Notes: generated by a model not told the origin, from the sequence alone. A stretch of DNA of 64,000 nt from an uncultured Bacilli bacterium (GCA_944332725.1 CALVKO010000001.1:719-64718), one strand, 5' to 3'; shown: positions 730-51,089, numbered from the stretch's first letter. Translations and numbers: made by a program.

Positions 730-752
730 AAAAGACTTGAATAGTCTTTTTA
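728..752. terminator. Bidirectional rho-independent terminator shared by convergent genes.
   Basis: AAAAAGACT-TGAAT-AGTCTTTTT hairpin with A/T runs on both sides. It overlaps the stop codons of both flanking genes. Confidence 0.6.
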
Positions 753-7267: not shown

Positions 7268-8350
7268 TTAATTTTTTCCAACAAAAACGTCATATATTTC
7301 TTTATATCGATATCCTAACTTAGCATGAGTTGAATCACTTACTATAATACCTAAATTAATTAATTGATCAATTAAAATGGATATTGTATTTCTTGATACT
7401 CCTGTTTCTTCTTCGATTTCCTTTTTTGTAAATACAATTTGATGCATCATAGCAGGCATTATTCGATAAACAGCATTACTATTTAAAGTCTTAATTTTCT
7501 CCATATCTTTTTTATAGATTTTGTTAATCATATTTATTTTAGCAATATAATTATTACATTGTTCAATTATACATTGTAAGAAAAATTTTATAAAACCAAC
7601 AATATTACCTTTTCTACTTTCATTTAAAAATTTATGATAGCTAGGTTTATATAATTCTAAAACTTCTGACAAGAAAAGAATAGGCTCATCTTCAGTTAAT
7701 TTAGCTAATTGAATAGATATCAAAGCACGACCTAATCTTCCATTTCCATCTCGATATGCATGAATAGTTTCAAATTGATAATGTGATATTGCAAGATTAA
7801 TAAAAATAGGATCTATAAAATTATTATTCATGTATTTAAACAAATTATTAAGTAGAATTGGAACATCTTCTGGAATTGGCGGTACAAAAATTGCTTCATT
7901 GATACTACAACCTGTTGGTCCAATCCAATTTTGAATAGTTCTTATCTTGCCTGGTTCTTTTTCATTTCCTCTTACACTATCTAATAAAATTTTATGGATA
8001 GCATTAACAAAATGAATATTTATATCGTTATTTTCAACTAAATAATCTTTTGCATACTCTATAACTTTTTTTAAATTTTGTATTTCCAAATTATCATCTG
8101 TTTTAGGCATGTACTTTAAATAATACATTTCATCTTGTGAAATTTGTGTCCCTTCTATTTGTGTAGATTTTAAACTTTCACTTAATATAATAGAATCTAA
8201 AAAATATTTTGAATCAAATTCAACATTTCTTAAATATGACTTATATTCACCGTATTTATAATTTGCTTCAGCTATTAAATTTAAAAGTTCTTTATCTATA
8301 TTATATTCGATTGGTAATTCTTTAACTTTCATTGGATTCATCTTTATCAC
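7268..8350 (-). CDS. Fic family protein (Fido domain, probable AMPylase) with a C-terminal winged HTH.
   Basis: Canonical Fic motif HAYRDGNGRLGRAL (HxFx(D/E)GNGR). Confidence 0.85.
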   Translation of the reverse strand: MIKMNPMKVKELPIEYNIDKELLNLIAEANYKYGEYKSYLRNVEFDSKYFLDSIILSESLKSTQIEGTQISQDEMYYLKYMPKTDDNLEIQNLKKVIEYAKDYLVENNDINIHFVNAIHKILLDSVRGNEKEPGKIRTIQNWIGPTGCSINEAIFVPPIPEDVPILLNNLFKYMNNNFIDPIFINLAISHYQFETIHAYRDGNGRLGRALISIQLAKLTEDEPILFLSEVLELYKPSYHKFLNESRKGNIVGFIKFFLQCIIEQCNNYIAKINMINKIYKKDMEKIKTLNSNAVYRIMPAMMHQIVFTKKEIEEETGVSRNTISILIDQLINLGIIVSDSTHAKLGYRYKEIYDVFVGKN

Positions 8351-11150: not shown

Positions 11151-11922
11151 TTAGTTATTTTCTAATATTTTTTCAACTTCACTAATTAATTCTTCTTTAT
11201 TTGGAATATAATATGTGTATGTTGAAGCAAATATATTATTAGATAATCCACCTAAAGCATATTCCATAGTTACACCTTTTTTACCAGTACAAAGAATAAT
11301 TCCTACTGTTTCATTATCAAATTCATCTTTAATTTCTTTATTATAATAATTAACATACATATTCATTTGCCCTGCATATTCTAGTTTCATATCATCCATT
11401 TTTAAATCTATTAAAACATATGATCTTAATATCTTATTATAAAAGCAAAGGCCAACATAATAATGTGTATAATGATGAATCAATTTGTCTTTTTAATTCT
11501 CTTTTAGACCATTTAGAATTAATGCACTCTTTTTCATAAAATTTTCTTTCATCATCATCTTCAATATAAATTAAATAACAATAATGACTCCAACTCAAAT
11601 TTCCAGCCAGTGGTTGGAAATTTTTGTACCTAATATAAAATAGTCTCATATTATATAAACCAGATAAACTAAATCCTGTTCCAAATTTATTAGTTAATTT
11701 TTTAGATAATTTTTTTAATACATCTTTTCCATAATCTGCTCTAATATTTCCGTTTTGTTCATTTTCCACAATAATTTTACCAATCATAAAATTTGTTTCA
11801 ATTAAAGTATTATTTATTTGATAAACCATTTTGGTTTTATTTTCAGTAATTACATTTGATATTTGATTATATATATTAGTTATTATTTTATCACTATTTT
11901 TTTCTACTACATTTGTTTGCAT
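11151..11922 (-). pseudogene. YhcG/DUF1016 PD-(D/E)xK nuclease family gene, decayed by an internal deletion plus frameshift.
   Basis: Two overlapping ORFs (11437-11922 and 11151-11483) align to the N- and C-terminal thirds of the intact paralogs at 36364-37398 and 47327-48382 (LSWSHY..., IDLK..., YVNYY..., GILL... blocks). The central block around the GFxFxGxQ motif, which contains motifs essential for the nuclease fold, is absent. Confidence 0.7.
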
Positions 11923-12125: not shown

Positions 12126-12875
12126 ATGAATGTTTCTTACACTTATATCGATGGTAAAGCAATAATTTTTGATGAAAACGGAAATCAAGTACCAATTAAT
12201 TATTATAATAATTTAGATGATGTATTGATCCAAGAAAATGTAATAGAAACTATTGAAAATAAAATAAAAGAATTAGGCAACATAAAAATTTTACCTAAAA
12301 AGAGATTTATTCCATTTACAACAATTTGTGCCACTATTGTCATATTAGTAGCGCCTTTAATATTAGGTTTAATATTTGGAATAAATATGTATACGACTTC
12401 TGTTAGTACTGCTTTTGGAGAAATGAATTTGTTTAAAATGATAGCGATTATTTGTGGAGTTACAATTGAACCAGTTGCAATAATTACTGATATTTTAAAT
12501 CATTCAATATATAATGATTTTGTTAAACATAACAATGCAAAAGTTAGTGAATTAGAATTTTTAAAAAGTAAATTAATTAAGGAAAAAGAAAAATTAAATT
12601 CTTTAAAAAAGGAAAGCTTTGAATGTGAAGAAAAGAAAGATTTTAAAACAGTAAAAGTAAATGATATAGAAGAATTAAAACAACTTAAAAATATGTTACT
12701 TTTATATTATGATTTAGGATATAATTCTAAAAAATATTATACTTATCAACAACAAGGAAAATTAAGAAAAAAACTAGCTAAAAAATATAGTGAAGAAGAT
12801 ATTAAATTAATTGAACAATATTTAGAAGAAAAAGGACCAACATTAGTAAAAAAACAACTAAAAAACTTACATTGA
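12126..12875 (+). CDS. Hypothetical membrane protein.
   Basis: An AGGAG RBS lies 8 nt upstream of the ATG at 12126; the ORF-track TTG start at 12075 is less likely. A central hydrophobic segment is followed by a K/E-rich C-terminal coiled coil. Confidence 0.55.
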   Translation: MNVSYTYIDGKAIIFDENGNQVPINYYNNLDDVLIQENVIETIENKIKELGNIKILPKKRFIPFTTICATIVILVAPLILGLIFGINMYTTSVSTAFGEMNLFKMIAIICGVTIEPVAIITDILNHSIYNDFVKHNNAKVSELEFLKSKLIKEKEKLNSLKKESFECEEKKDFKTVKVNDIEELKQLKNMLLLYYDLGYNSKKYYTYQQQGKLRKKLAKKYSEEDIKLIEQYLEEKGPTLVKKQLKNLH

Positions 12876-12896
12876 TTTGTAAGTTTTGTTTTTATA
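12861..12896. terminator. Terminator hairpin overlapping the stop of the preceding + gene and lying 3' of tRNA-Cys.
   Basis: AAAACTTACA-TTGATT-TGTAAGTTTT followed by a T-run. Confidence 0.55.
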
Positions 12897-12897
12897 T

Positions 12898-12972
12898 TGG
12901 AGGGCCCAGCCGGACTTGAACCGACGCTCGGGGAGTTGCAGTCCCATGCCTTACCAACTTGGCTATGGACCC
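12898..12972 (-). tRNA. tRNA-Cys (anticodon GCA).
   Basis: On the minus strand: GGGTCCA acceptor stem pairing with TGGGCCC, D-arm GCCAAGTTGGTAAGGC, anticodon loop CTGCAAC (U33-GCA-A37), T-arm GGTTCAAGTCC, and an encoded 3' CCA. Local GC content is much higher than the surroundings. Confidence 0.85.
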
Positions 12973-13033
12973 ATGTAAATAAATTATAGCAAAATATTTT
13001 TACTTAATCAAGTATTTTACTATAATTTATTCA

Positions 13034-14785
13034 TTATTTAAATAAATTATACTTAATTATATTATTTGAAGTTTCAATTAATGATTTAGCATACTCTTCT
13101 TTTTCATTAATATATTCTTTTGTAACTTCACTATATTCTTTATAATCTTCAAGTTGATTATTATAATATATTTTATTAGTAACCCAATTACCATTTGGAA
13201 AAACTACTATATTATCATCCAAATTAAATATATCATTGCCTAAAGCATATTTAGTATCAACGCCAAACATATTACCAATAGTTGGCATTACATCAATAGA
13301 TCCCATTAATGTATCTATTTCTTGATGTTTGATATCTTCTCCCCAAATAATTAAAGGAACTTTTGTTAATTCTTCATATTCATAAAAATCTATTTTTTTG
13401 CCTAAATATTTTTCATATTCTTTTTTTGTAAATTTGGCATCATGATCACCATAAATTACAATTATTATATCATCTTTATTTTCTAACTTATTAATAAATT
13501 CACCTATTGCTTCATCAGCATAATGAACTAATTTAATATAATTACCTATTTTAGTGCCTTCAGCATCACCAACATCAAATTCGATTCCTTCGGTATAAAA
13601 AGGTGTATGATTAGTTAGCATAATTAAAGTACCATAAAATTTATCATATTCTAAATTGTTAATAATGTCGACTGATTGATTAAAGAACGATTTATCGGAT
13701 AATCCTAAACCTATTTTATCACTCAAATCATAGTCATCATAACAATAAAACCTATCATAACCTATTTTTTTATACATTTTATCACGATTCCAATATGAGC
13801 ACAAATTTCCATGCATACTAAATGTATAATATCCTTTTTCCTTAAAAGACTTTATCATTGAATTATATTCATTATTTTCATAATTAACAAATACTGTACC
13901 AGTAGCAATCGGTAATATTGAGTTAGTTATCGTAAATTCAGTATCACTGCTAGTTCCAACGCTTTCTTCTGAATAATAATTAGTAAAATAAATTCCTTCA
14001 TTTTTTAATTTATATAAATTAGGTGTTATAGTTTCATTTATAAACATACTTTGGATACTTTCCGCGTGAATAAATAAAACACTTTTATCTTTAAATATAT
14101 TTGTATATTCATTAGTTTCTGTTTTCTTATTACTATAAAACTGCTCTACTTCTTCTTTAGCATCTTCATAACCACAATATGGACAAATAAATTTAGAAGT
14201 CATATAAAATAAATCATTTAATTGATATGTATAAATTCCCATATTTCTTACAACATATGACTTATTCCAATCGTGTTTTAAACGGTAAATATCATTAGTA
14301 TTAAAAGTTAATAAAGATATCACTAAAATTATAAAATAAATTAAAATATTTTGCTTAAATGATTTTATATCTTTTTTATTAGAAATTTTTTTATATAATA
14401 TTATCATTAAAATTATTTGCCACAAAAATACAAAATCATTTAATTGAATAACCCCTGTTACTGCTTCACTTGGAAGAAGAAACGCTAAATAAAGAGAACT
14501 TAACAAATATATTGAAGCAAAATCACTATAATTATTATAATACATTGAATTAATTATACATAAAGATGTTAATATTATAGATGTGATTAAAAAATATAAA
14601 TTTCTTTTTTTAAATAAAAAAGAAAAAGCATAAATAAACATTAAGAAACTTAAATCAAATAACAAAAATCTTAAATCTTTAAAACCTACTGTTAAATAAA
14701 GTAAAATACAACTATTAATTAAATTTGAAATAATAAAAAATATTCCTAAATCTTTTAATGATGATGGAAGAATAAACTTACGCAT
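13034..14785 (-). CDS. LTA synthase family protein (membrane-anchored sulfatase-like phosphoglycerol transferase).
   Basis: N-terminal multi-TM region followed by an extracellular sulfatase-like domain (YFTNYYSEESVGTSSDTEFT, HTPFY). Confidence 0.8.
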   Translation of the reverse strand: MRKFILPSSLKDLGIFFIISNLINSCILLYLTVGFKDLRFLLFDLSFLMFIYAFSFLFKKRNLYFLITSIILTSLCIINSMYYNNYSDFASIYLLSSLYLAFLLPSEAVTGVIQLNDFVFLWQIILMIILYKKISNKKDIKSFKQNILIYFIILVISLLTFNTNDIYRLKHDWNKSYVVRNMGIYTYQLNDLFYMTSKFICPYCGYEDAKEEVEQFYSNKKTETNEYTNIFKDKSVLFIHAESIQSMFINETITPNLYKLKNEGIYFTNYYSEESVGTSSDTEFTITNSILPIATGTVFVNYENNEYNSMIKSFKEKGYYTFSMHGNLCSYWNRDKMYKKIGYDRFYCYDDYDLSDKIGLGLSDKSFFNQSVDIINNLEYDKFYGTLIMLTNHTPFYTEGIEFDVGDAEGTKIGNYIKLVHYADEAIGEFINKLENKDDIIIVIYGDHDAKFTKKEYEKYLGKKIDFYEYEELTKVPLIIWGEDIKHQEIDTLMGSIDVMPTIGNMFGVDTKYALGNDIFNLDDNIVVFPNGNWVTNKIYYNNQLEDYKEYSEVTKEYINEKEEYAKSLIETSNNIIKYNLFK

Positions 14786-17812: not shown

Positions 17813-20800
17813 TTAATACCTACAATTATCAAAATTATTTGGATCATTATATGATCTATATCTATCATCTACGCATACTCCAGGTTGATTTTTAGCACCT
17901 GTTATATCTATTAAATAAGATAAATAATCGCTTATACAAGTTTTACCAGTTCCTGTATTACATTTAAAATCATATGTTTTTCCACTATAACTTCCATAAT
18001 ATTCAGCATAAGAATTTTCATCATTATAATTTCTTATTTCTTTAATAATCGAAGGCGTTAAGATAAATGTATACATTGGTTCTTCAGAATAAATTTCGTG
18101 TCCTTCTACATCACGATTATTTAATATAAATTCATCAACTACAGGATTAGTATTTGAGCAATTTGTTCTATCACCTAATCCATAACACCAATTTGAACCT
18201 GTTTCTCTACCACTAGCATCTATATCAGGGAATGGATCATATAAATCTATTGGTCTATATATTAAATTAATATCACCTTTATTAGGATTATTAGGATCAT
18301 TTGGATTATCTGGATTATCTGGATCATTTGGATTATCTGGATCATCTTCAGGTATTAATTCTGAAAAAACCTCAAATTGACATTGCCAATTACCATACTT
18401 TTCTTTATCTATCGCATCTAATATGCTATCAACAGCAGTTGATTTATTTGGAACTTTGTAACCTAAATTACTATATGTAATTGACAATTCACCATTACCA
18501 TATTCTTGACCATAAATACCATCTGGGGTTTTATATTCTACTGGAAAATTACTATATCCTAAATAAATGTAATTAAAAGTTTTTCCTTGTGAAATATATT
18601 GTGATTTTAATGTTTCTAGTTGTGATGCATTAAATGATATATTATCGTCTTTATTAATATATTCATATATACCAGCAGGAATATTAAAATCAATATTAGC
18701 ACCTTTGGTCATTTCAACTTTTGTACATTTTTTTATACCTAACATTTGTCTCGTACATTTATTTGTACTTGTATTACAACTTGTAAGTACTTCAATACCA
18801 CCACTTACAGTTTGGCAATCATTTTTATTCACTTTTTCTGTATATTCGATTTTTTTATCCATTTCTTCATTAACACTATATAATCCAGTAGAACCATTAA
18901 TTGTATAATTATATTTAACTATTGCACTAGGTTCGACAATATATAACCATTGATCCCACGATGAGCCTTCACCATCTGCAGTTGACATTGAACTTATCCA
19001 AGTTGCTCCATTATCTTCATTATAACATTTCTTCATTTGATCATATATATATTTAGCATCGTCTTTCATATTATCCCAAGTTTGATACTTTGAATCTCTA
19101 CCAAACCTGTCATCACTAGGATAACCACTACAAGAACAAGCACTACCTGCAGAACCATGTGCATATGTCGCTCCACTTCCATAAGTAGCAGAATCCCATT
19201 TAATACATGTTTCATCCCAGTATCTATGCCTACGACATCCTCCACCACAAGTACCCTTACCATCAGCACATGGATGTGTTGGATACCAAGATACACATTC
19301 GCTGCAACCATTCTTTACAGTATATTGTTTCACACTAGCTTGCTGATCTCTAGCAACTAAATATGTATTAAATGCTTTTTCTATTTCATTATTTTTATTT
19401 TTTAAATCAGTAGTGAATTTATTCCATTCAATTGATTTAGTTTTACATGTTCTACTACCACTAACACTATGTCCATTCCATACAAAATGTTGACCTGCTT
19501 TTACTTTAATTGTATTAGAATTAAATGCTCCAGTTAAGTTTTCTATACAATAAACTTCACAATAATCTGAAGTAATATTTTCATCATAATATGTTAATGG
19601 TTGATTCTTATCAGACCATTTATGTTCATTTATTGTATACATAGCATTTTCATCTGAAAAAACACAATATTTCCAATAATCTTCTTCATTTAATTCCTGT
19701 GATGTATCAGTGTAAAAAACATTTTCTTGATTGATACATGTTCCCACATTATAACTTGGTGTACAATTATATTTTTTCTTAATATCAACCTTTTCATCTT
19801 GAGTTATACAACCGGCAGATTGATAACTAGAAATTGTCCAATTTGTTCCGAATTGTGAATTATACAATTCAAAACATTGCTTATATAATTCTTTATTTTT
19901 ATCTAAATATTCATCAGTAAATGACGTTGAAGGGTATAAAGGTAATTTCTGACAAGATCTTATTATTTTGTTTTTCTCGTTGGTTTGTTCATTATCCGAA
20001 GTACAATTATAAAGACAATTATAAAAACGCCAAGTATTTCCCCATCCTTCTTGAGAACGACATTTTGAATAACATCCATAATATCCTAAAGTACTTTCCT
20101 CATCTAATTTATTAAAATCAACACTTTCGCAGGTTGCTGTTGCAAAACCACAATTTAGATTTTCATATTTTATATAATCCCATTGCGTAACTACACCAAC
20201 AGACGATGGATTCGTTTCCGAAATTTTATTGACTTGTTCTTTTACAGACTCAACAAATGAAACAAAGAAACTTTGTTTCTGTACAAATACACTTTTAATC
20301 TGATTTTTTACTAAATTATATAATTCAATATTATTAGAGTTTTTATATGCATCATAAACACCATAACATGTACATTCATTTATGTACCATACTTTATCAG
20401 CAACATTTGTCTTACCATTAACAGTATATTTTATACCATTGGCAACCTCTGGTAATGCATAAATACCATTTAAACCACTTCTTCTATAGGTAGATTCTAA
20501 TTTACTCATAAAACTAGAGTAATTACTAATACCACTATTTACTTCTTCACATGTCAGACTTAATTTAACAGTATCTTTAAAATACACTAAACCTATTCCT
20601 GCACCTTTATTGCCAGTAACATATTGTTCTGCTAAAATATCACTACTTTTACCACCACTAGTTTTAGCACACACATTTTGAAGCGAAACGCCACCGCTAT
20701 AAGAAGCAGATTCACTTAAATCAACAATATTCAAATTTCCATTAAAATAACTAGTACTTGATGCTCCTGGAACATTTTTATATCTTGTAATTATATCACC

Positions 20801-21598
20801 AGTGGTTAAAGCAGCACAAGGTAAAACTCTACCCATTGCTGAATTTACTGGTTTCCAGTTTACATACCCTAAAAATCCTAATTCATAACTTGTTCCAAGA
20901 TACATTTTGCCATCAAAAGTCAACATCGTAATAGGCTCAACAGTAATCCACAAATTATTAAACAAAGCATCATCAGAATTAGAAGATGGATTAACAGATT
21001 CAGCAATATTTTTTAAATCATCTGCAGATAATCCAAATAATGTTGAATACAAACTAACGATTCTTGAATCATTTATATCCAATTTATCCGTATCAGCCCA
21101 TTCCCATATTCTATCCAAATCCCAATTTTCAATATATGATTGTAATGAAACATTAAAAGGTGAAAATAAACTACTTAAACTTTCGGCAGTATAAATATAA
21201 CCCTTAAAACTTTCCCATGGATTGCCATCACCAGATTTAGTTAATTTATTATAAACATTACACCCAGATGTTCCCATTATATATTGAACTTTACTACATC
21301 CTGTCCCTAATACAACATAATTATCACTACTGCCTAATATATTATAATGTTCGTTATATGCTATTATATTAGACGAATGACCAACTTGGGTACCATCTGT
21401 TTTTAATAATGTAACTCTCATACCCCTAATATATTTTGGACCATCTGAAGTTGCAAAATTTGTCCAATAATTATACTTATCAGTATTACTACCAGAACCT
21501 GAAGGCAAACTCGTAATATCCGTTGCAGCATTAATCTTTACATAACATACTGCTATACTAATCGCTAAAATTAATAAAACAAAATACTTTTTTTTCAT
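17813..21598 (-). CDS. Large (1261 aa) secreted Cys-rich protein of unknown function with a low-complexity DPDNPN repeat.
   Basis: N-terminal signal peptide MKKKYFVLLILAISIAVCYVKINA. Roughly 50 cysteines. Imperfect tandem repeats encode PEDDPDNPNDPDNPDNPNDPNNPN (nt ~18290-18360). The single frame is uninterrupted; internal small ORFs on other frames are spurious. Confidence 0.7.
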   Translation of the reverse strand: MKKKYFVLLILAISIAVCYVKINAATDITSLPSGSGSNTDKYNYWTNFATSDGPKYIRGMRVTLLKTDGTQVGHSSNIIAYNEHYNILGSSDNYVVLGTGCSKVQYIMGTSGCNVYNKLTKSGDGNPWESFKGYIYTAESLSSLFSPFNVSLQSYIENWDLDRIWEWADTDKLDINDSRIVSLYSTLFGLSADDLKNIAESVNPSSNSDDALFNNLWITVEPITMLTFDGKMYLGTSYELGFLGYVNWKPVNSAMGRVLPCAALTTGDIITRYKNVPGASSTSYFNGNLNIVDLSESASYSGGVSLQNVCAKTSGGKSSDILAEQYVTGNKGAGIGLVYFKDTVKLSLTCEEVNSGISNYSSFMSKLESTYRRSGLNGIYALPEVANGIKYTVNGKTNVADKVWYINECTCYGVYDAYKNSNNIELYNLVKNQIKSVFVQKQSFFVSFVESVKEQVNKISETNPSSVGVVTQWDYIKYENLNCGFATATCESVDFNKLDEESTLGYYGCYSKCRSQEGWGNTWRFYNCLYNCTSDNEQTNEKNKIIRSCQKLPLYPSTSFTDEYLDKNKELYKQCFELYNSQFGTNWTISSYQSAGCITQDEKVDIKKKYNCTPSYNVGTCINQENVFYTDTSQELNEEDYWKYCVFSDENAMYTINEHKWSDKNQPLTYYDENITSDYCEVYCIENLTGAFNSNTIKVKAGQHFVWNGHSVSGSRTCKTKSIEWNKFTTDLKNKNNEIEKAFNTYLVARDQQASVKQYTVKNGCSECVSWYPTHPCADGKGTCGGGCRRHRYWDETCIKWDSATYGSGATYAHGSAGSACSCSGYPSDDRFGRDSKYQTWDNMKDDAKYIYDQMKKCYNEDNGATWISSMSTADGEGSSWDQWLYIVEPSAIVKYNYTINGSTGLYSVNEEMDKKIEYTEKVNKNDCQTVSGGIEVLTSCNTSTNKCTRQMLGIKKCTKVEMTKGANIDFNIPAGIYEYINKDDNISFNASQLETLKSQYISQGKTFNYIYLGYSNFPVEYKTPDGIYGQEYGNGELSITYSNLGYKVPNKSTAVDSILDAIDKEKYGNWQCQFEVFSELIPEDDPDNPNDPDNPDNPNDPNNPNKGDINLIYRPIDLYDPFPDIDASGRETGSNWCYGLGDRTNCSNTNPVVDEFILNNRDVEGHEIYSEEPMYTFILTPSIIKEIRNYNDENSYAEYYGSYSGKTYDFKCNTGTGKTCISDYLSYLIDITGAKNQPGVCVDDRYRSYNDPNNFDNCRY

Positions 21599-21762
21599 TT
21601 AATCACACCTAATCAATTAATATTGATTCCTTTCTATTTTATAATTATTCTAGAAATTTAATATCATTAACATGTTATATCGTTTTACCATTCATCTTTA
21701 ATAATTATACCAAATTCAAAATAAATAGTAAATAAATATTTAATATTTTTTAATAGAAAGAT

Positions 21763-22167
21763 TTATCTTATATTATAAAAATTATCTATGTAATAAGGAT
21801 TCAATAAAATAGTATGAGAAGGATTATTTTCATCTATTTCAATATAACCGATTATATTTTCTGATGAAATAATATAATAATCACTTTCTTTTTTCACTAA
21901 ATAAGGTATATCTTCTTTATAACATCCGATAATAACCATTTCATCATTATTTTTTACAAATTGATTGCCTCTTCTAATGATAAATTTATCAACATCATCT
22001 AAATTATCTAAATACAACTGATTTAAAGTGCTCGATAATTTAGAATCTTCCATAAATAAACCATTTTCCATTATATTATTTCCATTCCCCTTACCAGTTA
22101 TATGATAAAAATATGCCATATCATTAAAATCTAAATTTTCAAAAAAATCTTTAGCATCCATTTCCAT
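21763..22167 (-). CDS. Hypothetical protein (134 aa).
   Basis: Clean ORF between the prepilin peptidase gene and the giant secreted-protein gene. No motif recognised. Confidence 0.45.
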   Translation of the reverse strand: MEMDAKDFFENLDFNDMAYFYHITGKGNGNNIMENGLFMEDSKLSSTLNQLYLDNLDDVDKFIIRRGNQFVKNNDEMVIIGCYKEDIPYLVKKESDYYIISSENIIGYIEIDENNPSHTILLNPYYIDNFYNIR

Positions 22168-22182
22168 TTACTTCCACCCCTC

Positions 22183-22995
22183 TCAAAAAATTTCAATTGA
22201 TGTTATTATCGATAAAATAACATCAAAATTAATATGACTATAATATAATATTAGTGCAGCTATACTTAAAAATGGTCCATAAGGTATTTCATGATTTTTA
22301 TTAGTTTTCAATATAAAAATAGAAACAGGTAAAGCAATAAAAGCAGATAAAAATATTGAAATAATTGCTAATTTCCAACCGATTATTAAACCAAATATAG
22401 CCATCAATTTAATATCGCCACCACCCATTGATTCTCTTTTAAATATAAAATCGCCAAACAATTTTAATAGCAACATTACTACAAAAGAGATTAAGGCACT
22501 TAATAAAGAACTTAAAAGAATATCAAATCCATATATAAAATAAATTTCAATTATTAAGAGAACTCCAAATATAATTAAAACACTATCTTCAATAATCATG
22601 TAATAATAATCGCTTAATATAACTATTATCAATAATGAAGTAAAAGTTAAAGCAATTATTAAATCTAGAGAAATACCAAATGATAAATAACAAATAACAA
22701 ATAATAATCCACAAATTATTTCTGATATTGGATAAAATATAGATATTTTACACTTACAATTAAAACATTTACCTTTTTGAAATATGTAAGATAATATAGG
22801 TATTAATTCAAACCAATTTAACACATGATTACAATTTGGGCAATGACTACTTGGATAAACAATTGATTCTCCTTTTGGTAATCTATATGCTACAACATTA
22901 TAGAAGGAACCAAATATGGTTCCTAATATAAATAATCCAATTATAAAACTTATTTCCATAAATATCCCCCTACATTTGTAAAGTACCATAGACAC
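22183..22995 (-). CDS. Prepilin peptidase (A24 family, PilD/ComC-like).
   Basis: N-terminal CxxC...CxxC zinc motif (CPNCNHV...CFNCKC), multi-TM body, and GGGDIKLMAIFG around the catalytic Asp. Confidence 0.85.
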   Translation of the reverse strand: MSMVLYKCRGIFMEISFIIGLFILGTIFGSFYNVVAYRLPKGESIVYPSSHCPNCNHVLNWFELIPILSYIFQKGKCFNCKCKISIFYPISEIICGLLFVICYLSFGISLDLIIALTFTSLLIIVILSDYYYMIIEDSVLIIFGVLLIIEIYFIYGFDILLSSLLSALISFVVMLLLKLFGDFIFKRESMGGGDIKLMAIFGLIIGWKLAIISIFLSAFIALPVSIFILKTNKNHEIPYGPFLSIAALILYYSHINFDVILSIITSIEIF

Positions 22996-24934
22996 TAAAC
23001 ATTGGAATTACTATTGATAACACTATTCCTCCAACTGTAAATGTTAAAAATAAAATTAAGGCTGGTTCTATAAATGTTTTAATTCTAGTAACTGCATTCC
23101 TATGTAATTCTTGATAATAACTAGACACTTTACTCATCATTTCCGCTAATTGACCAGTTCTTTCACCTGTTATTATCATCTCATAAGCAGGTATCGGAAA
23201 TGCCCAATGATCTTTAAATGCTAGGGAAATTTTTTCTCCTTTAGCTAAATTAGTTATCGTATCAAGAATCAACATTTTATATATTTCATTATTAGTTATC
23301 TTATTTAGTATTTCCATACTATCAGTAATAAATACATTATGCGCTAAAAGCGATGCAAACGTCTTAGTAAACATGGTAACTTCATTATATATAATAACAT
23401 TACCAAAAATAGGCATATGCATTAAAAACCATTGTATTGTAGTTTTAAATGCTTTAACATTTTTATATAAGTAAACAAATATTATAATAAATAAACAAAT
23501 TCCAATTATTAAATATAAATAATATTTTTGTAAAAAACTACTTAACGACATAACAAATAAAGTTATATCCGGTATCTTTGCACCATCTATTCCTTCATAG
23601 ATTTCAACAAATTGTGGAACAACCCATACCATTATAAATACTACTGCTGCAATTGCAAAAACAAATATAATTGCAGGATATGTCATAGCGGTAATCATCT
23701 GTTTTCTTGTTTTATCTGATTCTGTAAAATAATTTGCCATATCATCTAATACCTCAGGCAATTCACCAGTCATTTCAGATGCTTTAACCATATTTATAAA
23801 TAATCTTGGAAATGCTTCTCCTTGCTTATCCATTGCTGTAGAAAAGTTATCACCCATTGTTAAATCATATATCATCATTCTAAATATTCTAACATATGAA
23901 CTTTTTTTAAATTGGTGAGATAATATTTTTAAGGCTTCTACTAATGGAATACCTGCTTTTATATAAGTAGATAATTGAGTACAGAAGAAAATCAAATCTC
24001 GTGTCTTTATTCTTTTATGATTAGTAGATGTGCCATTACCATATATTCTTTGAATCCATTTATTAGTTTCAATACTATAAACTTCATTACCTTCACTTAA
24101 TAAAAATGAATGTACTTCTACTTTTGAATAAGCAGGAAAGTATCCTTTTATTATTTTGCCATCTGGATCCTTTGCTACATATTTATACATAACTTTTTCT
24201 TCACTTTTTTCGGCATCGGCGCCTTCAAAATCTAATAAAAGTGCTTCTCTATTAATATCGTTTTTATTTTTCACATCTTTTACAAATCGATTGTTTGAAA
24301 TAGATTCTTTAATTTTTTTAGGTAAATTCCCTATTGCTATAAAAAGCGAATTAATATAATCAGACAATTTCTTTTTCTCTATTACAACATTTTCGTTGAT
24401 ATAAATGTCTGCTTTTCTTTTTTCTTTTAATTCTTCTTTTTTCTTAGCAATTTTTTCTTTTTCTTTCTTTCTATTTTCTGCTAATCTTTTCTTATTTTCT
24501 TCATCAATTTGTCTATTTCTTTCTCTAGCAAGTGCTTTTTTTTCTTGCTCCATTTGTTGTTTTTGAAGCATTTTGTTATTAATATCATTTAATTTGATAA
24601 AGCCTCTTACAATTATTACAAATGGAAAAACAAAACCAAATACTACATATTTTATGAATAAATAAACAAATCTTGATAAAACAATAAAGCCAATAAATAA
24701 ATATTTCAAAAATTTATACCAAAAATATGATAAATATAAAAATATATAACTCATCATTTTTATAAAATATAGTAAAGTTGACATAACAATATCTATAAAA
24801 ATAAATAATGTAATAAAAAATCCAACATTTATATATTTTATTAATTTAATCAAAAAAACAAACAAAAAACGCACCATTTTGTAAACATATATAAATGGCA
24901 TTAAATATACTGGTTTATTCAATAGTATCACCAC
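22970..24934 (-). CDS. Type II secretion / type IV pilus platform protein (GspF/PilC/ComGB family) with a ~235-aa N-terminal membrane plus K/E-rich coiled-coil extension.
   Basis: The canonical PilC start MYKYVAKDPDGKIIKGY and two GspF repeats (GIPLVEALKIL..., ...MPIFGNVI...) occupy the C-terminal ~415 aa. The upstream ~235 aa are in-frame TM hairpins plus a charged coiled coil. An alternative internal start is near 24217. Confidence 0.75.
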   Translation of the reverse strand: MVILLNKPVYLMPFIYVYKMVRFLFVFLIKLIKYINVGFFITLFIFIDIVMSTLLYFIKMMSYIFLYLSYFWYKFLKYLFIGFIVLSRFVYLFIKYVVFGFVFPFVIIVRGFIKLNDINNKMLQKQQMEQEKKALARERNRQIDEENKKRLAENRKKEKEKIAKKKEELKEKRKADIYINENVVIEKKKLSDYINSLFIAIGNLPKKIKESISNNRFVKDVKNKNDINREALLLDFEGADAEKSEEKVMYKYVAKDPDGKIIKGYFPAYSKVEVHSFLLSEGNEVYSIETNKWIQRIYGNGTSTNHKRIKTRDLIFFCTQLSTYIKAGIPLVEALKILSHQFKKSSYVRIFRMMIYDLTMGDNFSTAMDKQGEAFPRLFINMVKASEMTGELPEVLDDMANYFTESDKTRKQMITAMTYPAIIFVFAIAAVVFIMVWVVPQFVEIYEGIDGAKIPDITLFVMSLSSFLQKYYLYLIIGICLFIIIFVYLYKNVKAFKTTIQWFLMHMPIFGNVIIYNEVTMFTKTFASLLAHNVFITDSMEILNKITNNEIYKMLILDTITNLAKGEKISLAFKDHWAFPIPAYEMIITGERTGQLAEMMSKVSSYYQELHRNAVTRIKTFIEPALILFLTFTVGGIVLSIVIPMFSVYGTLQM

Positions 24935-25039
24935 GCATTCCCTTTTGTTATTCTTACACTATTATGATTATACCATATTTTTCTAAAAAGTAAAACTTTT
25001 TTTGTAAAATTCATATAATATTTTGAAAGGAGGAAAATC

Positions 25040-25372
25040 ATGAATTTTTATCCATATTATAATTTTCCTTACGCTTCTTTTTCTCAAATACCTAAGGCTG
25101 GAGGATTAAAATCATTATTTGGGGGTATCAAATGGAGTTCTATTTTAAGCGGAACACAAAAAACTTTAAATGTTGTTAATCAAGCAATTCCCATTATTAA
25201 ACAAGCAGGGCCTGTTATTAATAATGCTAAAACTATGTTTAGGGTTATGAATGAATTTAAAAAAGTTGATGTTCCTCAGAATAATATAATTGAAAACCCT
25301 GCTTCTCAAATTAATAGTCCCGAAACAAAAACAGAAAAAAATAATACAATTGGTCCTACTTTTTTCCAATAA
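25040..25372 (+). CDS. Hypothetical small protein (110 aa).
   Basis: A strong AAGGAGG RBS precedes the ATG. It is transcribed divergently from the PilC-like gene. No recognised motif. Confidence 0.5.
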   Translation: MNFYPYYNFPYASFSQIPKAGGLKSLFGGIKWSSILSGTQKTLNVVNQAIPIIKQAGPVINNAKTMFRVMNEFKKVDVPQNNIIENPASQINSPETKTEKNNTIGPTFFQ

Positions 25373-27993: not shown

Positions 27994-29642
27994 AAATCTC
28001 TTCCCTTCTTAAATCTATTAATTATTTTATTTACAAATTTATCACCAAATACTACATTAAATAAATTATTTTTGTATGATAAATAAAAATATATTATTGC
28101 TCCGATACTAGCATATATAACAATTTCAACAAATGACCATAATCTCGTTGTTGGAAAACTTCCCAAAAATAACCTTATTATCATTAAAGATAACATCATT
28201 ATCCCATTTATTAATATAATTTTTATACTTGGCTCTAAACTACTTTTATAACTTAAACTATATATTTTTCTTAATTTATATAATAAATAGATAACTGCTA
28301 ATAATTGAACAACCATTGTAGTTAATATAGTTCCATAATATGCTTCAAAGCCAATAAACTTCACAAAATACATAGATGGAATATTTAATATTGCTTTTAA
28401 AATAAAACTACCTAATAATGTGCCTAACGCTAACTTAGGATTATTTAATGCATTAGTCGTATCGACTAAAATATAGAAAAACGAGTTAATTATAGTTTGT
28501 AAAATAAAGAAACTAAATACTTTTACACTTAAACTATCATAACCATAAAATATTGTCCAAACACTACTAGATAAAAAACATAATCCTAAAGTCATCGGTA
28601 AAGAAATAAATAAAATCATTTTTAATGTTTGATTTATTTTTAACGATACATCATTATAATTTTTCAATGTTGCACTTCTTACAATATTAGGTATTATACT
28701 AACTGTTAAACCAAAAGTAACCGCTAAAATAATCATATTTAATTTAGATCCCCAAGTAGTTACAATACTTAAAACATTTTCTGCTGTATTAATATCATAT
28801 CCTAATGGAACTAATCCTCTTACAATTGTAAATACATCAACTGTATTATATACTGATCTTATTAATTCAATTAAGATAAATGGTAAAGAATATAAAACTA
28901 TTCTCTTAAAAATTATTTTATTAGTTAATTTTCTTTCTTCTTTTTTTGGTAATTCATCTCTTTTTAATATTTCTCTATTTTTATTTATTTTATTGATTAC
29001 ATATAGATACGCTGTTAAAGCACCTGCTGTTGCTCCAAAGGTTGCAACACCAACTGTTGTAGCAATTGATAAATGAAATACTTTTAAAGTTAAATAGCTA
29101 CCACCTACAATCACTATTACTCTTACTAACTGTTCAATTACATTTGCTATAGCAGGAACAACCATCATTCTATGTCCTTGAACATAACCCTTGCTTACGC
29201 TTAAAATAGGTATAAATAATAAAGCAGTTGATATAACTCTAATTACAAACGTTATATCTTCTATACTATTACCGCCTTCGATATCTCCTATTATTAAATA
29301 AGATATTTGTGGTGCGAAAACAAATAAAATGATAAAACTTATTAATCCTAAAATAACTATTAAATATTTGCCTATTTTGTATGCTCTTTCCTGTGCATCA
29401 TAGTAACCTAAAGTGTTATATTCACTAACAGTTTTAGCCATCGCACTAGGTATTCCCGTTGATGATAATGATGCGAAAACTGAATAAATTGTATAAGCAT
29501 AACTATATAAAATAGCACCCTGTGTTCCTATTATTGCTCTAAAAGGAATAACATAAATTATACCTAATACTTTACATAAAACTATTCCAATAGTTGATAT
29601 TAATGCTCCTTCAACAAAGCTGTTTTTTTTCAATATAATCAC
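27990..29642 (-). CDS. MOP-superfamily flippase / polysaccharide biosynthesis protein.
   Basis: About 14 TM helices and an N-terminal region typical of Wzx/MurJ/SpoVB-type exporters. It overlaps the upstream Fic gene and the downstream lipoprotein gene by 4 nt each. Confidence 0.7.
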   Translation of the reverse strand: MIILKKNSFVEGALISTIGIVLCKVLGIIYVIPFRAIIGTQGAILYSYAYTIYSVFASLSSTGIPSAMAKTVSEYNTLGYYDAQERAYKIGKYLIVILGLISFIILFVFAPQISYLIIGDIEGGNSIEDITFVIRVISTALLFIPILSVSKGYVQGHRMMVVPAIANVIEQLVRVIVIVGGSYLTLKVFHLSIATTVGVATFGATAGALTAYLYVINKINKNREILKRDELPKKEERKLTNKIIFKRIVLYSLPFILIELIRSVYNTVDVFTIVRGLVPLGYDINTAENVLSIVTTWGSKLNMIILAVTFGLTVSIIPNIVRSATLKNYNDVSLKINQTLKMILFISLPMTLGLCFLSSSVWTIFYGYDSLSVKVFSFFILQTIINSFFYILVDTTNALNNPKLALGTLLGSFILKAILNIPSMYFVKFIGFEAYYGTILTTMVVQLLAVIYLLYKLRKIYSLSYKSSLEPSIKIILINGIMMLSLMIIRLFLGSFPTTRLWSFVEIVIYASIGAIIYFYLSYKNNLFNVVFGDKFVNKIINRFKKGRDL

Positions 29643-30604
29643 TTCCTTATGTTCCAGTAACCACCATTATCTGAACCGATTCTTTCTATAAAATTATTAT
29701 CGATTAATTTTTTTAAATTGTACTTAACTCCATCTGGTGTAATATTTAGTTTTTTAGCTAATTCATTTCTAGTAATACTAGGATTTTCATTTATATACTC
29801 TAATATTTTAATTTGATTTTTATTTAATTTCTGGGTAGTTTTCTGGGTAGTTTTTTCTAATGAAGAATTAATAATTTTCAACATAAAACTAATAAATATA
29901 TTAGCATTTCCATTAATATGACATTGAGCAATAGAATTATAATATTCTTCTTGATTTATATAAATTTCTTCTTCGATTGGAATATATTTAAAATTTTTAT
30001 TCCAATCAGTTAAAATTAAAGTTATCCAAAACCTTGCTAATCTTCCATTTCCATCACTAAATGGATGAATAGTTATAAAATAATAATGAAAAATAGAAGC
30101 AAGTATAATTGGATGAAGATCATTACCATTGATATATTCAAATAAACTTTCCATAAGAGATGGTACAACTAAAGAATTTGGTGCCATATAAATTATTTCA
30201 TCATCTTTCTTTGTTCCTTCACCGTGATTCCGATAGTAACCATTGTCATCATCAAAATATCTCATAAGCACTGTGTGTGCTTTTAAAAAATCTTCTTCAC
30301 TTTTCCAATTATAATCATCAATATGCTCATATAATTCATTAGCATTTTTTACTTCTTGAATTTCTTTTCTACTTCCTAATACTAATTTGTTTTCGATAAT
30401 ATTTTCAATTGAATTTAATGATAAGGTATTTTCTTCAATTGCAAGTGAAGAATAAATAGACCTTACCCTAGACTTAATTTGTAAATTTTTTTTTATACTA
30501 TTTTCTATTTTTATTAAAGATAAATTTTTTTCAATGTTTTTGATAATATTTTTATTATCTTCACTTATATAAAATATTGGATTTATTTTATCAAAATCTT
30601 TCAC
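29639..30604 (-). CDS. Fic family protein with a C-terminal wHTH.
   Basis: Fic motif HPFSDGNGRLARF. GTG start. Contains a 12-bp tandem duplication encoding KTTQKTTQK. Confidence 0.85.
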   Translation of the reverse strand: MKDFDKINPIFYISEDNKNIIKNIEKNLSLIKIENSIKKNLQIKSRVRSIYSSLAIEENTLSLNSIENIIENKLVLGSRKEIQEVKNANELYEHIDDYNWKSEEDFLKAHTVLMRYFDDDNGYYRNHGEGTKKDDEIIYMAPNSLVVPSLMESLFEYINGNDLHPIILASIFHYYFITIHPFSDGNGRLARFWITLILTDWNKNFKYIPIEEEIYINQEEYYNSIAQCHINGNANIFISFMLKIINSSLEKTTQKTTQKLNKNQIKILEYINENPSITRNELAKKLNITPDGVKYNLKKLIDNNFIERIGSDNGGYWNIRK

Positions 30605-31489: not shown

Positions 31490-32830
31490 CTATTCACATA
31501 AAACTGCACGGGCGGAATAGGTGGAATAACCACCACCTGCGCCGTAGTAGAAGTGGAACAAACCGGCATTCGAACCATAGATGAAGTAGCCGCCCCGAAT
31601 GAACCAGGAAGTACTAGAGTACGGAAAGTTCGCGTTATCACTATACCATCCACCATATTCATTTCCAAAAGTCTTTAATATTTCTTTTGTTGCATCTCCT
31701 AGTTTTCCTCGTCCATGAGTAGTCCAAGATGTCCCATAGGTATAACTATCGTAATATTTTGAATCTGGTGGGGTACTAAACCCTGCACTAGCTGAATAAA
31801 AATTTCCACTACTATTTACCATATTGCCCATTACATACTCCCAAGCTCCTCCACTCATATCATATACGCCATAGATATTTCCAGTTGTACTTGCTAACAT
31901 TCCTGTCGTTGTATTATATGCATTACAACTACTTGATGATGAGCTTCCAGCAGTTGCTCCACATCCTGTTACAAAATTACTATTATTATTTATATATACT
32001 TCTTCATTTATTCCATATTTACTATGGGATAGGTATGCTACTGCCCCCCATTCCATATTTTTCATCATATGGCTATCGCCGTTTAAACTATAACTTGTAT
32101 TTATATTTTGAATTGCTGTGAAAAATGACGATACTGTTTGACTTCTTAAACTTGTTACATTTGGTTTTATTGTTATCTTGCTTGTACTTCCACTTACCTC
32201 AAATTTTCCTACCCAAAATCCAGTTAATTCTTGCGTTCCTAAAGTAAATGCTGGATGTGTATACCAATTGCCATTTGTTGCATTTGTACAAGTTTCACTT
32301 GAAGTTGTTCCATCAGTTCCGCTTATATTATCAGTACAACTTACTGTTCCTGTTAAAGAAGTCCCACTTTCAAATTGTATTTGAATTTCTTGTTCGTTTA
32401 CACTTCCATTATCAGCGTTAAATAATTGATATTTATATCTTGGTATCCATACATACCATAAATCTATATCATCTTCAGTTACTACTTCACCTACGTTTTT
32501 TGTTGTATTCAAAACAACTGCATTGGCCCATTCTTTTGCATCATAATCATACCATTCTTGCAATACATCTGCTACTACCCAATTATTATTTTCATATTTA
32601 ATCGGTACCATATTATCTAATAATTCAGGCATATTGGCCCCACTATTATCCGCGTATTGTTTATTTGTATCACTATTCTCGCCATTCAATTCTTCCATTA
32701 CTTCATTTTTAAGTTTATCTAAAATCATTTTTCTAGCACCCATAATACTTAAAATACCGAATAGTAACAATAAAAATAAAATTAATAATGAATAAATAAT
32801 CCCTGATACAGCAAAACCTTTCTTATTCAA
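31490..32830 (-). CDS. Large pilin-like / prepilin-signal protein (446 aa) with a Gly/Ser/Thr-rich extracellular region.
   Basis: Probable TTG start at 32828-32830 preceded by a GAGGGTG RBS. This gives N-terminus MNKKGFAVSGIIYSLLILFLLLL, a class-III signal-like leader followed by F and a hydrophobic helix, with Gly at +5. The track start at 32884 is the TTG of a TTGATA -35 box. The last ~60 codons are GC-rich. Confidence 0.55.
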   Translation of the reverse strand: MNKKGFAVSGIIYSLLILFLLLLFGILSIMGARKMILDKLKNEVMEELNGENSDTNKQYADNSGANMPELLDNMVPIKYENNNWVVADVLQEWYDYDAKEWANAVVLNTTKNVGEVVTEDDIDLWYVWIPRYKYQLFNADNGSVNEQEIQIQFESGTSLTGTVSCTDNISGTDGTTSSETCTNATNGNWYTHPAFTLGTQELTGFWVGKFEVSGSTSKITIKPNVTSLRSQTVSSFFTAIQNINTSYSLNGDSHMMKNMEWGAVAYLSHSKYGINEEVYINNNSNFVTGCGATAGSSSSSSCNAYNTTTGMLASTTGNIYGVYDMSGGAWEYVMGNMVNSSGNFYSASAGFSTPPDSKYYDSYTYGTSWTTHGRGKLGDATKEILKTFGNEYGGWYSDNANFPYSSTSWFIRGGYFIYGSNAGLFHFYYGAGGGYSTYSARAVLCE

Positions 32831-36349: not shown

Positions 36350-36377
36350 AAAAATCCTAACAACTAGGATTTTTCAA
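36350..36377. repeat. Direct repeat copy A (about 28-30 bp) containing the stop and terminator hairpin. It is identical to 37453-37482.
   Basis: AAAAATCCTAACAACTAGGATTTTTCAA. The TAG stop of the DUF1016 gene lies inside the hairpin at the same position as the gatB TAG in copy B. Confidence 0.7.
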
Positions 36378-50039: not shown

Positions 50040-51089
50040 TCAGAGCGAGACGGCGAAGCCGTAGCTGAGGGCGCCGACGTCATGGACATCCCACGCGAGA
50101 TCAGGAATAGACACAACACTCAAGTTTGCTGGTGTTTTTGTCCAATAACCTTTACCTGCGTTACTATCTCCTGTGGTTTCTAAATTTATTGCTGCCCATT
50201 CTGGCAGTATATACTTTTCTCCTCCTGCTGCTATTATTGCTTCTCGACATTCGCTTCCACTACTACAATTCATTACACTTTCATTTGATTGCAAAAATCC
50301 ATAAAAATCTGTAAAATATTTACTTTCCCAATTCGATGTCTCTCCGCTTGACTCTAATTCTTTGTAATATTCTGTTAACTTCAATATTTCTTCGGCTTCT
50401 GGTAAATATTTCTTTGTTACTTTGTTCCAACTACTTGTTCTTTCATTCATTGCTGCTAGGGCTGTTATTGGGCCAAATTCATATAAATTTTGATTTTTTA
50501 CTTCATCTGAATCACTAGCCCAATTTCCTCCAGCACTGCTATAATCACGTATACTTATCCACGCTACTGTTCCTCCTGGTAAATTTCTATCTAATATTCC
50601 TACTATTTCATCACCATTTACTTCTAATACATAGATATTTTGGGTTTCACTATCACTTACTTGAACTTTTAATAAATCTCCTACTGCATATTTTGCTTCA
50701 GGTTTTTCTAAATCTCCTTCTACCATTGCATTATCTTGTAAACTATATGTATGACCATTACTTTCTACTTTTAGCCAAGTTAATTTATCGCTATATTCAA
50801 TTTCTAATACTTCAGCATTTCCTAAGTTTACCATTGTTGGTACATTTTCTTTTGTCATACTTGATGTACATATTCTAGTATAATTATTATCCAATTGATA
50901 TTTTACATCCTCTGTTGCACAATAGTTATTTATTCCACTATATATCATATTTGCCTCGGATAATCCTGCACTCTTTCTTGCATCTTCTACTACATCTAAT
51001 ATTATAGGTGTGGCAATAAGGGCTACTATTGCCAAAATGATAATAACTGCTAATAACTCAATTAGCGTAAAACCACGTTTTAAATTCAT
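50040..51089 (-). CDS. Type IV pilin / pseudopilin (large, 349 aa) with a canonical prepilin N-terminus.
   Basis: MNLKRGFTLIELLAVIIILAIVALIA prepilin cleavage/methylation motif (G|FTLIE). An AAGGAGG RBS is present. The last ~30 codons are GC-rich. Confidence 0.8.
   Translation of the reverse strand: MNLKRGFTLIELLAVIIILAIVALIATPIILDVVEDARKSAGLSEANMIYSGINNYCATEDVKYQLDNNYTRICTSSMTKENVPTMVNLGNAEVLEIEYSDKLTWLKVESNGHTYSLQDNAMVEGDLEKPEAKYAVGDLLKVQVSDSETQNIYVLEVNGDEIVGILDRNLPGGTVAWISIRDYSSAGGNWASDSDEVKNQNLYEFGPITALAAMNERTSSWNKVTKKYLPEAEEILKLTEYYKELESSGETSNWESKYFTDFYGFLQSNESVMNCSSGSECREAIIAAGGEKYILPEWAAINLETTGDSNAGKGYWTKTPANLSVVSIPDLAWDVHDVGALSYGFAVSL

Follow-up and report, generated by a model that had tools for sequence, protein, structure and literature searches.

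A stretch of 64,000 nucleotides (nt) from an uncultured Bacilli bacterium (64 kb, hereafter the window; G+C content of ~24% throughout) carries on its minus strand the gene pair pilC-pilD, which encodes a PilC-like platform protein and a prepilin peptidase. The platform protein has ~248 additional residues ahead of the position where characterised members of its family begin, and this extension, together with the location of the rest of the filament genes, is the subject of the present work. Four open reading frames (ORFs) of 654, 270, 134 and 1261 amino acids (aa) follow one another on the minus strand (Table 1), as an initial annotation of the window had reported. That annotation was also right in its assignment of the first two products, both of which carry the expected Pfam domains, and in calling the 134-aa protein unknown; the 134-aa and 1261-aa proteins have no match in Pfam, NCBIfam or PHROGs.

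Table 1. Features of the pilC-pilD locus and related genes of the window, with positions counted from its first nucleotide
Feature	Position	Strand	Basis
pilC, T2SSF-family platform protein with N-terminal extension	22970..24934	-	654 aa from GTG 24934; two T2SSF domains
Extension part 1, residues 1-118, predicted hydrophobic helix with narrow Lys/Arg stripe	24581..24934	-	AlphaFold2, periodicity
Extension part 2, residues 119-176, predicted K/E/R-rich helical linker	24407..24580	-	Composition, AlphaFold2
Extension part 3, residues 177-248, conserved segment before canonical start	24191..24406	-	Column conservation, dN/dS
Canonical PilC core, residues 249-654 and stop codon	22970..24190	-	Pfam and NCBIfam models, match to Myxococcus xanthus PilC
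pilD, prepilin peptidase / N-methyltransferase	22183..22959	-	Pfam domains, motifs; follows pilC in all related loci
134-aa cytoplasmic protein, lineage-specific neighbour	21763..22167	-	Starts 15 nt past pilD; no family match
1261-aa secreted Cys-rich protein, small orphan family	17813..21598	-	23 homologue clusters; lineage-specific neighbour
yqfQ-like gene, ~110 aa, divergent from pilC	25040..25372	+	Pfam YqfQ, E 2e-9; conserved left border
Promoter-like site upstream of pilC, TTTACT, 16 nt, TG-TATAAT (extended -10)	24967..24994	-	Consensus match only
Modular type IV prepilin, 349 aa, MNLKRG with cleavage before FTLIELLAVIIILAIVALIATP	50040..51089	-	N_methyl, 31.2 bits versus cutoff of 21.2; motif scan
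Pilin-like protein, leader MNKKG, FAVSG start, large ~400-aa C-terminal module	31490..32830	-	Start, ribosome-binding site and promoter-like site read from sequence

Two stretches of the 654-aa protein match PF00482 (T2SSF) with an E value of 4.5e-48 and 162.8 bits (cutoff of 25.2). Residues 249-653 are collinear with residues 18-417 of M. xanthus PilC (PDB 3jc8; E 2.4e-50), and the GspF and PilC models align from residue ~249, with positions 1-397 of the 401 in the GspF model being covered. The protein missed the NCBIfam equivalog cutoffs for GspF (TIGR02120, 276 versus 424), PilC (NF052607, 242 versus 700; NF052606, 211 versus 700) and ComGB (NF041012, 130 versus 240), the last of which aligns only from residue 315. 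On these sequence matches it is filed as a member of the T2SSF superfamily nearest to PilC/GspF, and not as ComGB. More than 100 homologue clusters with 63-99% identity span all 654 residues. The start codon of pilC is ambiguous (GTG 24934, GTG 24931 or TTG 24922), and a purine-rich sequence that resembles a ribosome-binding site, AAAGGGA, can be read between the promoter-like site and the GTG. PilD, a prepilin peptidase of the PilD/ComC family (MEROPS A24A), scored over the cutoffs for A24_N_bact (E 4.4e-33) and Peptidase_A24 (E 2e-14), and its translation contains the GxGD catalytic-Asp motif in the form GGGDIK and a four-Cys motif, CPNC...CFNC. The pilD ORF encodes 270 aa; its most likely start, ATG 22959, is 10 nt past the pilC stop codon and gives a protein of 258 aa.

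Comparative data came from searching a single genome of each GTDB species for a PilC relative, which was found in at least 173 species. Loci were compared for the best 80 of these 173 species, and ~85 PilC-centred loci were considered overall. The record titles of the 80 best loci describe uncultured Bacilli, Tenericutes, Mollicutes or Bacillota metagenome-assembled genomes, mostly from the gut, and the genome and metagenome searches made did not find a cultured representative of the clade. The sub-clade of the window comprises loci L001, L008-L019 and L039, while the species group that shares its gene order comprises L039 and L088-L090. The block formed by yqfQ and pilC-pilD is kept in nearly all of the ~85 loci, and the yqfQ-like gene stays divergently paired with pilC even where the surroundings have been fully rearranged.

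The initial annotation placed the beginning of the conserved part of PilC at about residue 240 and considered both an internal start at an ATG near 24217 and a separately translated membrane protein upstream of it. An extension ahead of the core does exist, and it is in frame with the core in all 82 distinct homologue sequences, in which its length ranges from 167 to 494 aa. The canonical start corresponds to the Met of MYKYVAKD, which is residue 249 and is encoded by ATG 24190, making this codon the candidate internal start, whereas conservation begins well ahead of it at residue ~177. The position of residue 249 is occupied across the homologues by Leu (34), Met (24), Val (13), Thr (7) or Pro (3), and with so variable a residue at this position, initiation at an internal codon cannot hold for the homologues in general. 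Ratios of nonsynonymous to synonymous substitution (dN/dS) between the window PilC and eight close relatives were 0.18-0.37 for residues 2-120, 0.06-0.39 for residues 121-176, 0.08-0.17 for residues 177-248 and 0.03-0.10 for the core. PilD, like PilC, is under strong purifying selection. The extension is genuine and under purifying selection (dN/dS of 0.06-0.39), and the long form is the protein. A separate membrane protein encoded upstream is excluded by the uninterrupted frame in 82 of 82 homologues, by purifying selection and by replacement of the Met.

As initially annotated, the extension is not a known feature of PilC. When residues 1-248 were compared by phmmer with 1.84 billion representative proteins, 35 hits were obtained, and the nine that were inspected are truncated genes for the PilC extension save one that matches a coiled coil only, so that neither a stand-alone family nor a fusion partner was seen among these nine. 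Pfam searches with the extension alone gave sub-threshold, composition-driven matches only. M. xanthus PilC and the other solved or curated family members compared lack a counterpart, and no account of the feature turned up in literature searches on PilC N-terminal extensions and on pili of RF39-type gut Bacilli. What is new is a clade-wide, three-part N-terminal module of PilC; in its core components the machinery is that of an ordinary type IV filament of monoderms.

Part 1 of the extension is, across the clade, a very hydrophobic helix of ~85-118 residues in which the basic stripe is flanked by Tyr/Trp. Its mean hydrophobicity equals that of transmembrane regions, and no more than 14 consecutive residues lack K, R, D and E, as against runs of 18-63 in true transmembrane proteins of the window. 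The 12 Lys/Arg residues of part 1 share one helical face over ~118 residues, and the stripe holds its phase from one third of part 1 to the next (281, 295 and 262 degrees; R of 0.83). The spectrum of charged positions peaks at 3.65 residues (11/3), the peak being 11 times that of shuffled sequences for the window PilC and on average 5.6 times for 61 homologues, in 46 of which it is the global maximum. In the homologues the K/R resultant length is 0.75 versus 0.32 in shuffles, Tyr/Trp lie 30-90 degrees and Gly 60-120 degrees from the stripe, and Ile/Val/Phe/Pro lie opposite it; basic residues far outnumber acidic ones (K+R 481 versus D+E 54). An AlphaFold2 model of the PilC monomer, built from an alignment of 57 sequences at least 63% identical and having a mean predicted local distance difference test score (pLDDT) of 70, has one unbroken helix from residue 8 to residue 168, with pLDDT of 80-89 at residues 20-100. 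Because the stripe keeps a single phase, the uncharged runs do not exceed 14 residues and the model has one continuous helix, part 1 is read as a single amphipathic helix and not as a transmembrane bundle. These statistics and the model suggest that it is one long 11/3 amphipathic helix, which would best be explained as lying in the plane of the membrane in the cytoplasmic leaflet. A hydrophobic-window scan of PilC shows the hydrophobic-then-charged layout and the spans of the core, and is unfit for counting helices.

The initial annotation had instead predicted four to five transmembrane helices followed by a K/E-rich coiled coil. A K/E-rich helical linker is indeed present, whereas the transmembrane helices are contradicted by the periodicity. 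In a broader form of this idea, the extension would supply two to five ordinary transmembrane helices that enlarge the membrane domain of PilC (compare archaeal FlaJ-type proteins), with a cytoplasmic coiled coil after them. In its favour are the hydrophobicity of part 1, which equals that of transmembrane regions, and uncharged runs of 20 residues or more in 33 of the 82 homologues. If D48 were tolerated, residues 34-58 of the window protein could also cross the bilayer, and the conserved Gly38, Gly100 and Pro104 could mark turns. Hairpins, however, would break the single phase that 12 Lys/Arg residues keep over 118 residues, no uncharged run in the window protein is longer than 14, and the ordered zones of Tyr/Trp, Gly and Ile/Val fit an interfacial helix, as does the unbroken helix in the AlphaFold2 model. 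A transmembrane bundle is thus unlikely, although it is the alternative that survives best.

The linker between the hydrophobic block and the conserved segment, rich in K (20%), E (14%) and R (7%), shows no conservation of sequence and measures 51 to 397 aa in 81 homologues; AlphaFold2 continues the helix through it to residue 168 with low confidence. Part 3 has the motif YxNENVxxEK ... PxxIK ... NxxFVKxxxNKxDxxRxALLIxFEGxDAxKSxxK. Mean column conservation over residues 226-248 is 0.72, F236 is invariant, and D240, A241, K243, S244 and K247 are kept in at least 77 of the 82 sequences. The pLDDT of part 3 is <50 despite this conservation, and because the segment is conserved throughout the clade yet left unfolded by AlphaFold2, it reads as a linear docking motif.

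A second point of the initial annotation was that no secretion ATPase is encoded near pilC-pilD. This holds for the window, since a motif scan and tblastn found no T2SSE ATPase anywhere in its 64 kb, but it reflects a rearrangement that many relatives have not undergone. The other ATPase-side genes (two flanking pilins, Gate and Lon_C) were likewise not found in the window. In ~35 related loci, a convergent ORF with the motifs GATGSGKST and GEIRD lies directly beyond pilD, and it encodes a T2SSE ATPase of the PilB/GspE type (Pfam E ~1e-124). Past the ATPase gene, where the loci reach that far, are two divergent prepilin genes and usually then Gate and Lon_C. An ATPase gene with the same pilin/Gate/Lon_C flank is located ~19 kb from pilC-pilD on one contig of the L034 genome. 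Among 38 ATPase-centred metagenome loci with enough room, the ATPase gene is linked to pilC-pilD in 17 and unlinked in 21. The comparison shows that in the ancestral order of the clade two pilin genes diverge from the pilB ATPase gene, pilB converges on the pilD-pilC pair, and pilC diverges from yqfQ.

The sub-clade of the window belongs to the unlinked type, in which the chromosome has been rearranged right after pilD. Gene order beyond this point differs even between close relatives: pilD is followed by lspA-rluD-rhomboid in L001, by a 106-aa gene and a sigma factor gene in L003, and by two modular pilin genes (573 and 562 aa) and then lspA in L010. The absence of an ATPase gene near pilC-pilD is a lineage-specific rearrangement and no property of the system. 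A scaffold of the PilM/N/O type was not seen in the loci examined. Close to the pilus genes, the window encodes a single large P-loop ATPase, a HerA-type protein of 589 aa (750-2519, minus strand; DUF87, E 4e-21), which is not T2SSE and is by its sequence unrelated to pilus assembly.

The initial annotation correctly noted that pilin genes lie apart from pilC-pilD in the window; one of them is canonical (50040-51089) and the other pilin-like (31490-32830). The canonical prepilin has the expected features in its leader and the residues that follow (MNLKRG, then FTLIELLAVIIILAIV after the cleavage site), namely a short basic leader that ends in Gly (-1), then Phe and Glu at +1 and +5, and a hydrophobic helix. 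Its N-terminal ~130 aa are 65% identical to those of the pilin encoded directly after pilD in L010. The modular pilins of L010 (4243-7918; 573 and 562 aa) and L072 (6704-9379; 892 aa) have a near-identical N-terminal module and varied C-terminal modules. The pilin-like protein has Gly and not Glu at +5 and gave no match to N_methyl. Its C-terminal module shares 78% identity with the corresponding part of a canonical modular pilin in L010 and recurs in the 892-aa pilin of L072; in both of these proteins it is fused to a canonical FTLIELL pilin module, and its match to FGE-sulfatase is weak and below the cutoff. Pilins that lack Glu5, such as GspK, sit at the tip of the filament. By analogy, the pilin-like protein would be a better candidate for a tip adhesin than the 1261-aa protein, if the window encodes one.

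The 134-aa and 1261-aa genes had been annotated as members of one cluster with pilC-pilD. Downstream of pilD they are confined to one species group, made up of the window, L039 and L088-L090, which does not bear out a conserved four-gene cluster. Neither protein matched phage genomes by tblastn, and an origin of the two genes as a prophage insertion was ruled out on this basis. The gap of 164 nt between the 134-aa gene and the 1261-aa gene holds a promoter-like site (21732-21704; consensus scan), and the 1261-aa gene probably has its own promoter.

The 1261-aa protein has a Sec-type signal peptide (MKKKYFVLLILAISIAVCYVKINA), no prepilin leader and no C-terminal anchor. The signal peptide and a DPDNPN run had both been recognised at the outset, whereas the number of Cys residues is 43 and not ~50 as first given; this amounts to 3.4% of residues, versus ~1% in the neighbours, and 27 of the Cys are kept in 90% or more of the family. 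The DPDNPN run (residues 1086-1106) precedes the most conserved C-terminal domain. The family has 23 clusters, none with a Pfam domain. A PDB sequence search with the 1261-aa protein returned nothing below E 0.26. Structure prediction, which had been suggested for both proteins and gave a single helix for residues 8-168 of the PilC extension, did poorly here: the AlphaFold2 model of residues 62-1261 from a 23-sequence alignment has a mean pLDDT of 55.8 and leaves the conserved C-terminal domain unfolded, and a Foldseek search of PDB with this model found nothing below E 0.04.

In five other contexts, homologues of the 1261-aa protein are encoded next to rpmB, either after trmD or after a polysaccharide cluster/Thioredoxin_3/DUF1003 arrangement. 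In L007 (9196-13408), and at the same positions in L096 and L097, a 63-aa Thioredoxin_3 gene and a DUF1003 gene are followed by the homologue and then by rpmB. The Thioredoxin_3/DUF1003 neighbours hint at a redox partner for the conserved cysteines of the family. A 142-aa gene upstream of the rpmB-linked homologue in L005, considered as a possible relative of the 134-aa gene, is unrelated to it.

It has been proposed, first in the initial annotation, that the 1261-aa protein is a pilus adhesin or a secreted substrate. In its full form this proposal makes the four genes a unit, in which the 1261-aa protein would be the adhesin or substrate of a type II secretion-like system built on PilC/PilD and the 134-aa protein a chaperone or adaptor. 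The genes do share a strand, only 15 nt separate pilD from the 134-aa gene, L039 has the same four-gene order at 85% identity, and a pilin is encoded within ~4 kb of the 1261-aa homologue in all other contexts that reach far enough. Such a unit is nonetheless very unlikely. The adjacency is confined to one species group, and the family elsewhere adjoins rpmB, far from pilC-pilD. The leader of the 1261-aa protein is of the Sec type and not that of a prepilin, the gene has no conserved linkage to pilus genes, the 142-aa gene of L005 is no relative of the 134-aa gene, and neither a fold nor a family links the protein to adhesins. Judged from sequence and gene order, the 134-aa and 1261-aa genes appear to be chance neighbours of pilC-pilD, with no evidence that ties the 1261-aa protein to the pilus.

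Three other minus-strand ORFs of the window (7268-8350, 29639-30604 and 51174-51806) have translations with a Fic/Doc-like look, two having a Fic-type motif (HAYRDGNGRLGR, HPFSDGNGRLAR) and the third FLDGNKRVANL. Two full-length paralogues on the same strand (36364-37398 and 47327-48382), with WSHY... and DLVFYN or DLLFYN in their translations, resemble YhcG/DUF1016 nucleases, and a third YhcG/DUF1016-like copy (11151-11922, minus strand) appears to be divided, perhaps through a frameshift, between two overlapping ORFs of 161 and 110 aa. Tandem paralogues of ~470 aa that look like pyruvate kinase can be read at 59583-60995 and 61063-62469 (minus strand).

A further possibility is that the locus is a decaying remnant in which the ATPase has been lost and pilC-pilD are degenerating into pseudogenes, or whose work is done by a separate comG operon. 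The lack of an ATPase gene in 64 kb and the failure of PilC to reach the GspF, PilC and ComGB equivalog cutoffs are in keeping with decay. On the other hand, the ORFs are intact, an intact prepilin gene is present in the window and modular pilins occur in relatives, unlinked loci with an ATPase gene and pilins exist, and the PilC core has dN/dS of 0.03-0.10 against eight relatives that also lack an adjacent ATPase gene. Because this strong constraint on PilC is found in exactly the unlinked sub-clade, the machine would seem to be still in use, with its ATPase encoded elsewhere in the genome, and a remnant is highly improbable. It is scarcely credible that the long ORF is an artefact, with translation from ATG 24190 and only untranslated AT-rich DNA upstream of it, for although a hydrophobic-then-Lys-rich product fits T-rich and then A-rich DNA and a purine-rich stretch precedes this ATG, the frame is open in 82 of 82 homologues despite the frequency of stop codons at 24% G+C, the Met is not conserved, selection is purifying, promoter-like and ribosome-binding-site-like sequences precede the long ORF, and a 3.65-residue periodicity is not obtainable from base composition.

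The core of PilC shares with characterised PilC/GspF proteins two T2SSF repeats, an N-terminal beta-beta-alpha-beta arrangement, helical cytoplasmic domains and hydrophobic spans, and its gene is likewise accompanied by one for a prepilin peptidase and, in relatives, by a T2SSE ATPase gene. It differs from them in the ~248 extra N-terminal residues (167-494 in relatives). With the Com pilus (ComGA/ComGB/ComC and ComGC-GG) the system has in common an apparently minimal parts list and a Gram-positive lineage, as well as a ComEC in one relative. The genes of the clade, however, are dispersed or convergent, the platform protein is nearer to full-length PilC/GspF than to ComGB, and the pilins, unlike ComGC, are large modular proteins of 349-573 aa, with 892 aa reached in one relative. 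A contiguous comGA-comGB-comGC order was found neither in the window nor in ~170 related loci, which together with the sub-cutoff ComGB score agrees with the initial view that this is not a standard ComG operon. In L093, a ComEC-type gene (12243-14138; DUF4131, Competence, Lactamase_B) lies ~4 kb beyond the yqfQ side of a pilB-pilD-pilC-yqfQ arrangement, and because of this gene the pilus may serve DNA uptake in the clade.

Amphipathic lipid-binding helices with 11/3 periodicity are found in alpha-synuclein, the apolipoproteins and the perilipins. Pestivirus Erns has been described as a long in-plane membrane anchor (PMC8002126). Part 1 resembles these helices in its ~3.67-residue periodicity, its basic stripe and its interfacial aromatic belt, and differs from them in that it is unrelated in sequence, has a narrower polar face (~1/10 residues charged) and is fused to a polytopic protein. 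For the filament subunits, the closest parallel is provided by the type IV pilins of Streptococcus sanguinis, which are modular, with a standard N-terminal module and large, varied C-terminal modules (PMC8179133). The pilins of the window (50040-51089), L010 and L072 are built in the same modular way; the C-terminal modules in the clade differ from those of S. sanguinis, one having a weak FGE-sulfatase-like match, and the genes are scattered and do not form a pil locus.

Taken together, the data make it probable that pilC-pilD is half of a split type IV pilus (type IV filament) set of gut Bacilli/'Tenericutes', in which PilC bears an N-terminal module and the ATPase is encoded elsewhere. The architecture of the extension is well supported, whereas its function is something that we infer. 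Part 1 would be an in-plane anchor that rests flat in the cytoplasmic leaflet of the membrane, part 2 would act as a spacer or coiled coil, and part 3 could be a motif at which a partner docks, for example the ATPase or an adjacent PilC subunit. Jointly, the three parts would keep the platform's cytoplasmic face tethered and in position.

Several points weigh against a split set of this kind or against details of the module. The ATPase that would belong to the window was not found in its 64 kb, a scan of metagenome contigs for the ATPase of the sub-clade found none on a contig that carries a close PilC relative, and the sub-clade may have lost this ATPase. The in-plane topology of part 1 is drawn from sequence statistics and one AlphaFold2 monomer with a shallow alignment, and the long uncharged runs noted above for 33 of 82 homologues make a true span possible in some of them. 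Pairs of residues placed at i/i+4 for salt bridges are little enriched in the linker (0.155 versus 0.118), and Leu/Ile are present, so the linker could be a coiled coil instead of a single stable helix. PulF, which is related to PilC, has been reported as a trimer (PMC10790770), and for this reason the coiled coil would perhaps be trimeric. Finally, the gap of only 15 nt after pilD makes co-transcription of pilC-pilD with the 134-aa gene likely in this species, and the two may be functionally linked.

A bolder version of the split-set reading is a long shot. In this version, a design new to type IV filament machines, the platform protein would itself contain the in-plane helix, ~16 nm long, and a stiff charged spacer. 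With three copies of each in a PilC trimer, they would form an outrigger or stator that anchors and positions the ATPase-platform interface through FEGxDAxKS, taking the place of the PilM/PilN/PilO scaffold in a large clade of gut Bacilli with reduced genomes.

The 'missing ATPase' and the giant Cys-rich neighbour are the outcome of genome rearrangement and do not point to a new secretion system. How the platform couples the cytoplasmic ATPase to pilin extraction, and which accessory scaffolds are needed, is debated, especially for monoderms. A module that has been kept throughout a clade, with the extension present in all 80 best loci, amounts to a natural experiment on platform tethering. 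Gut metagenomes of animals and humans contain these bacteria in abundance, and the large modular pilins of the clade could serve as their main adhesins.

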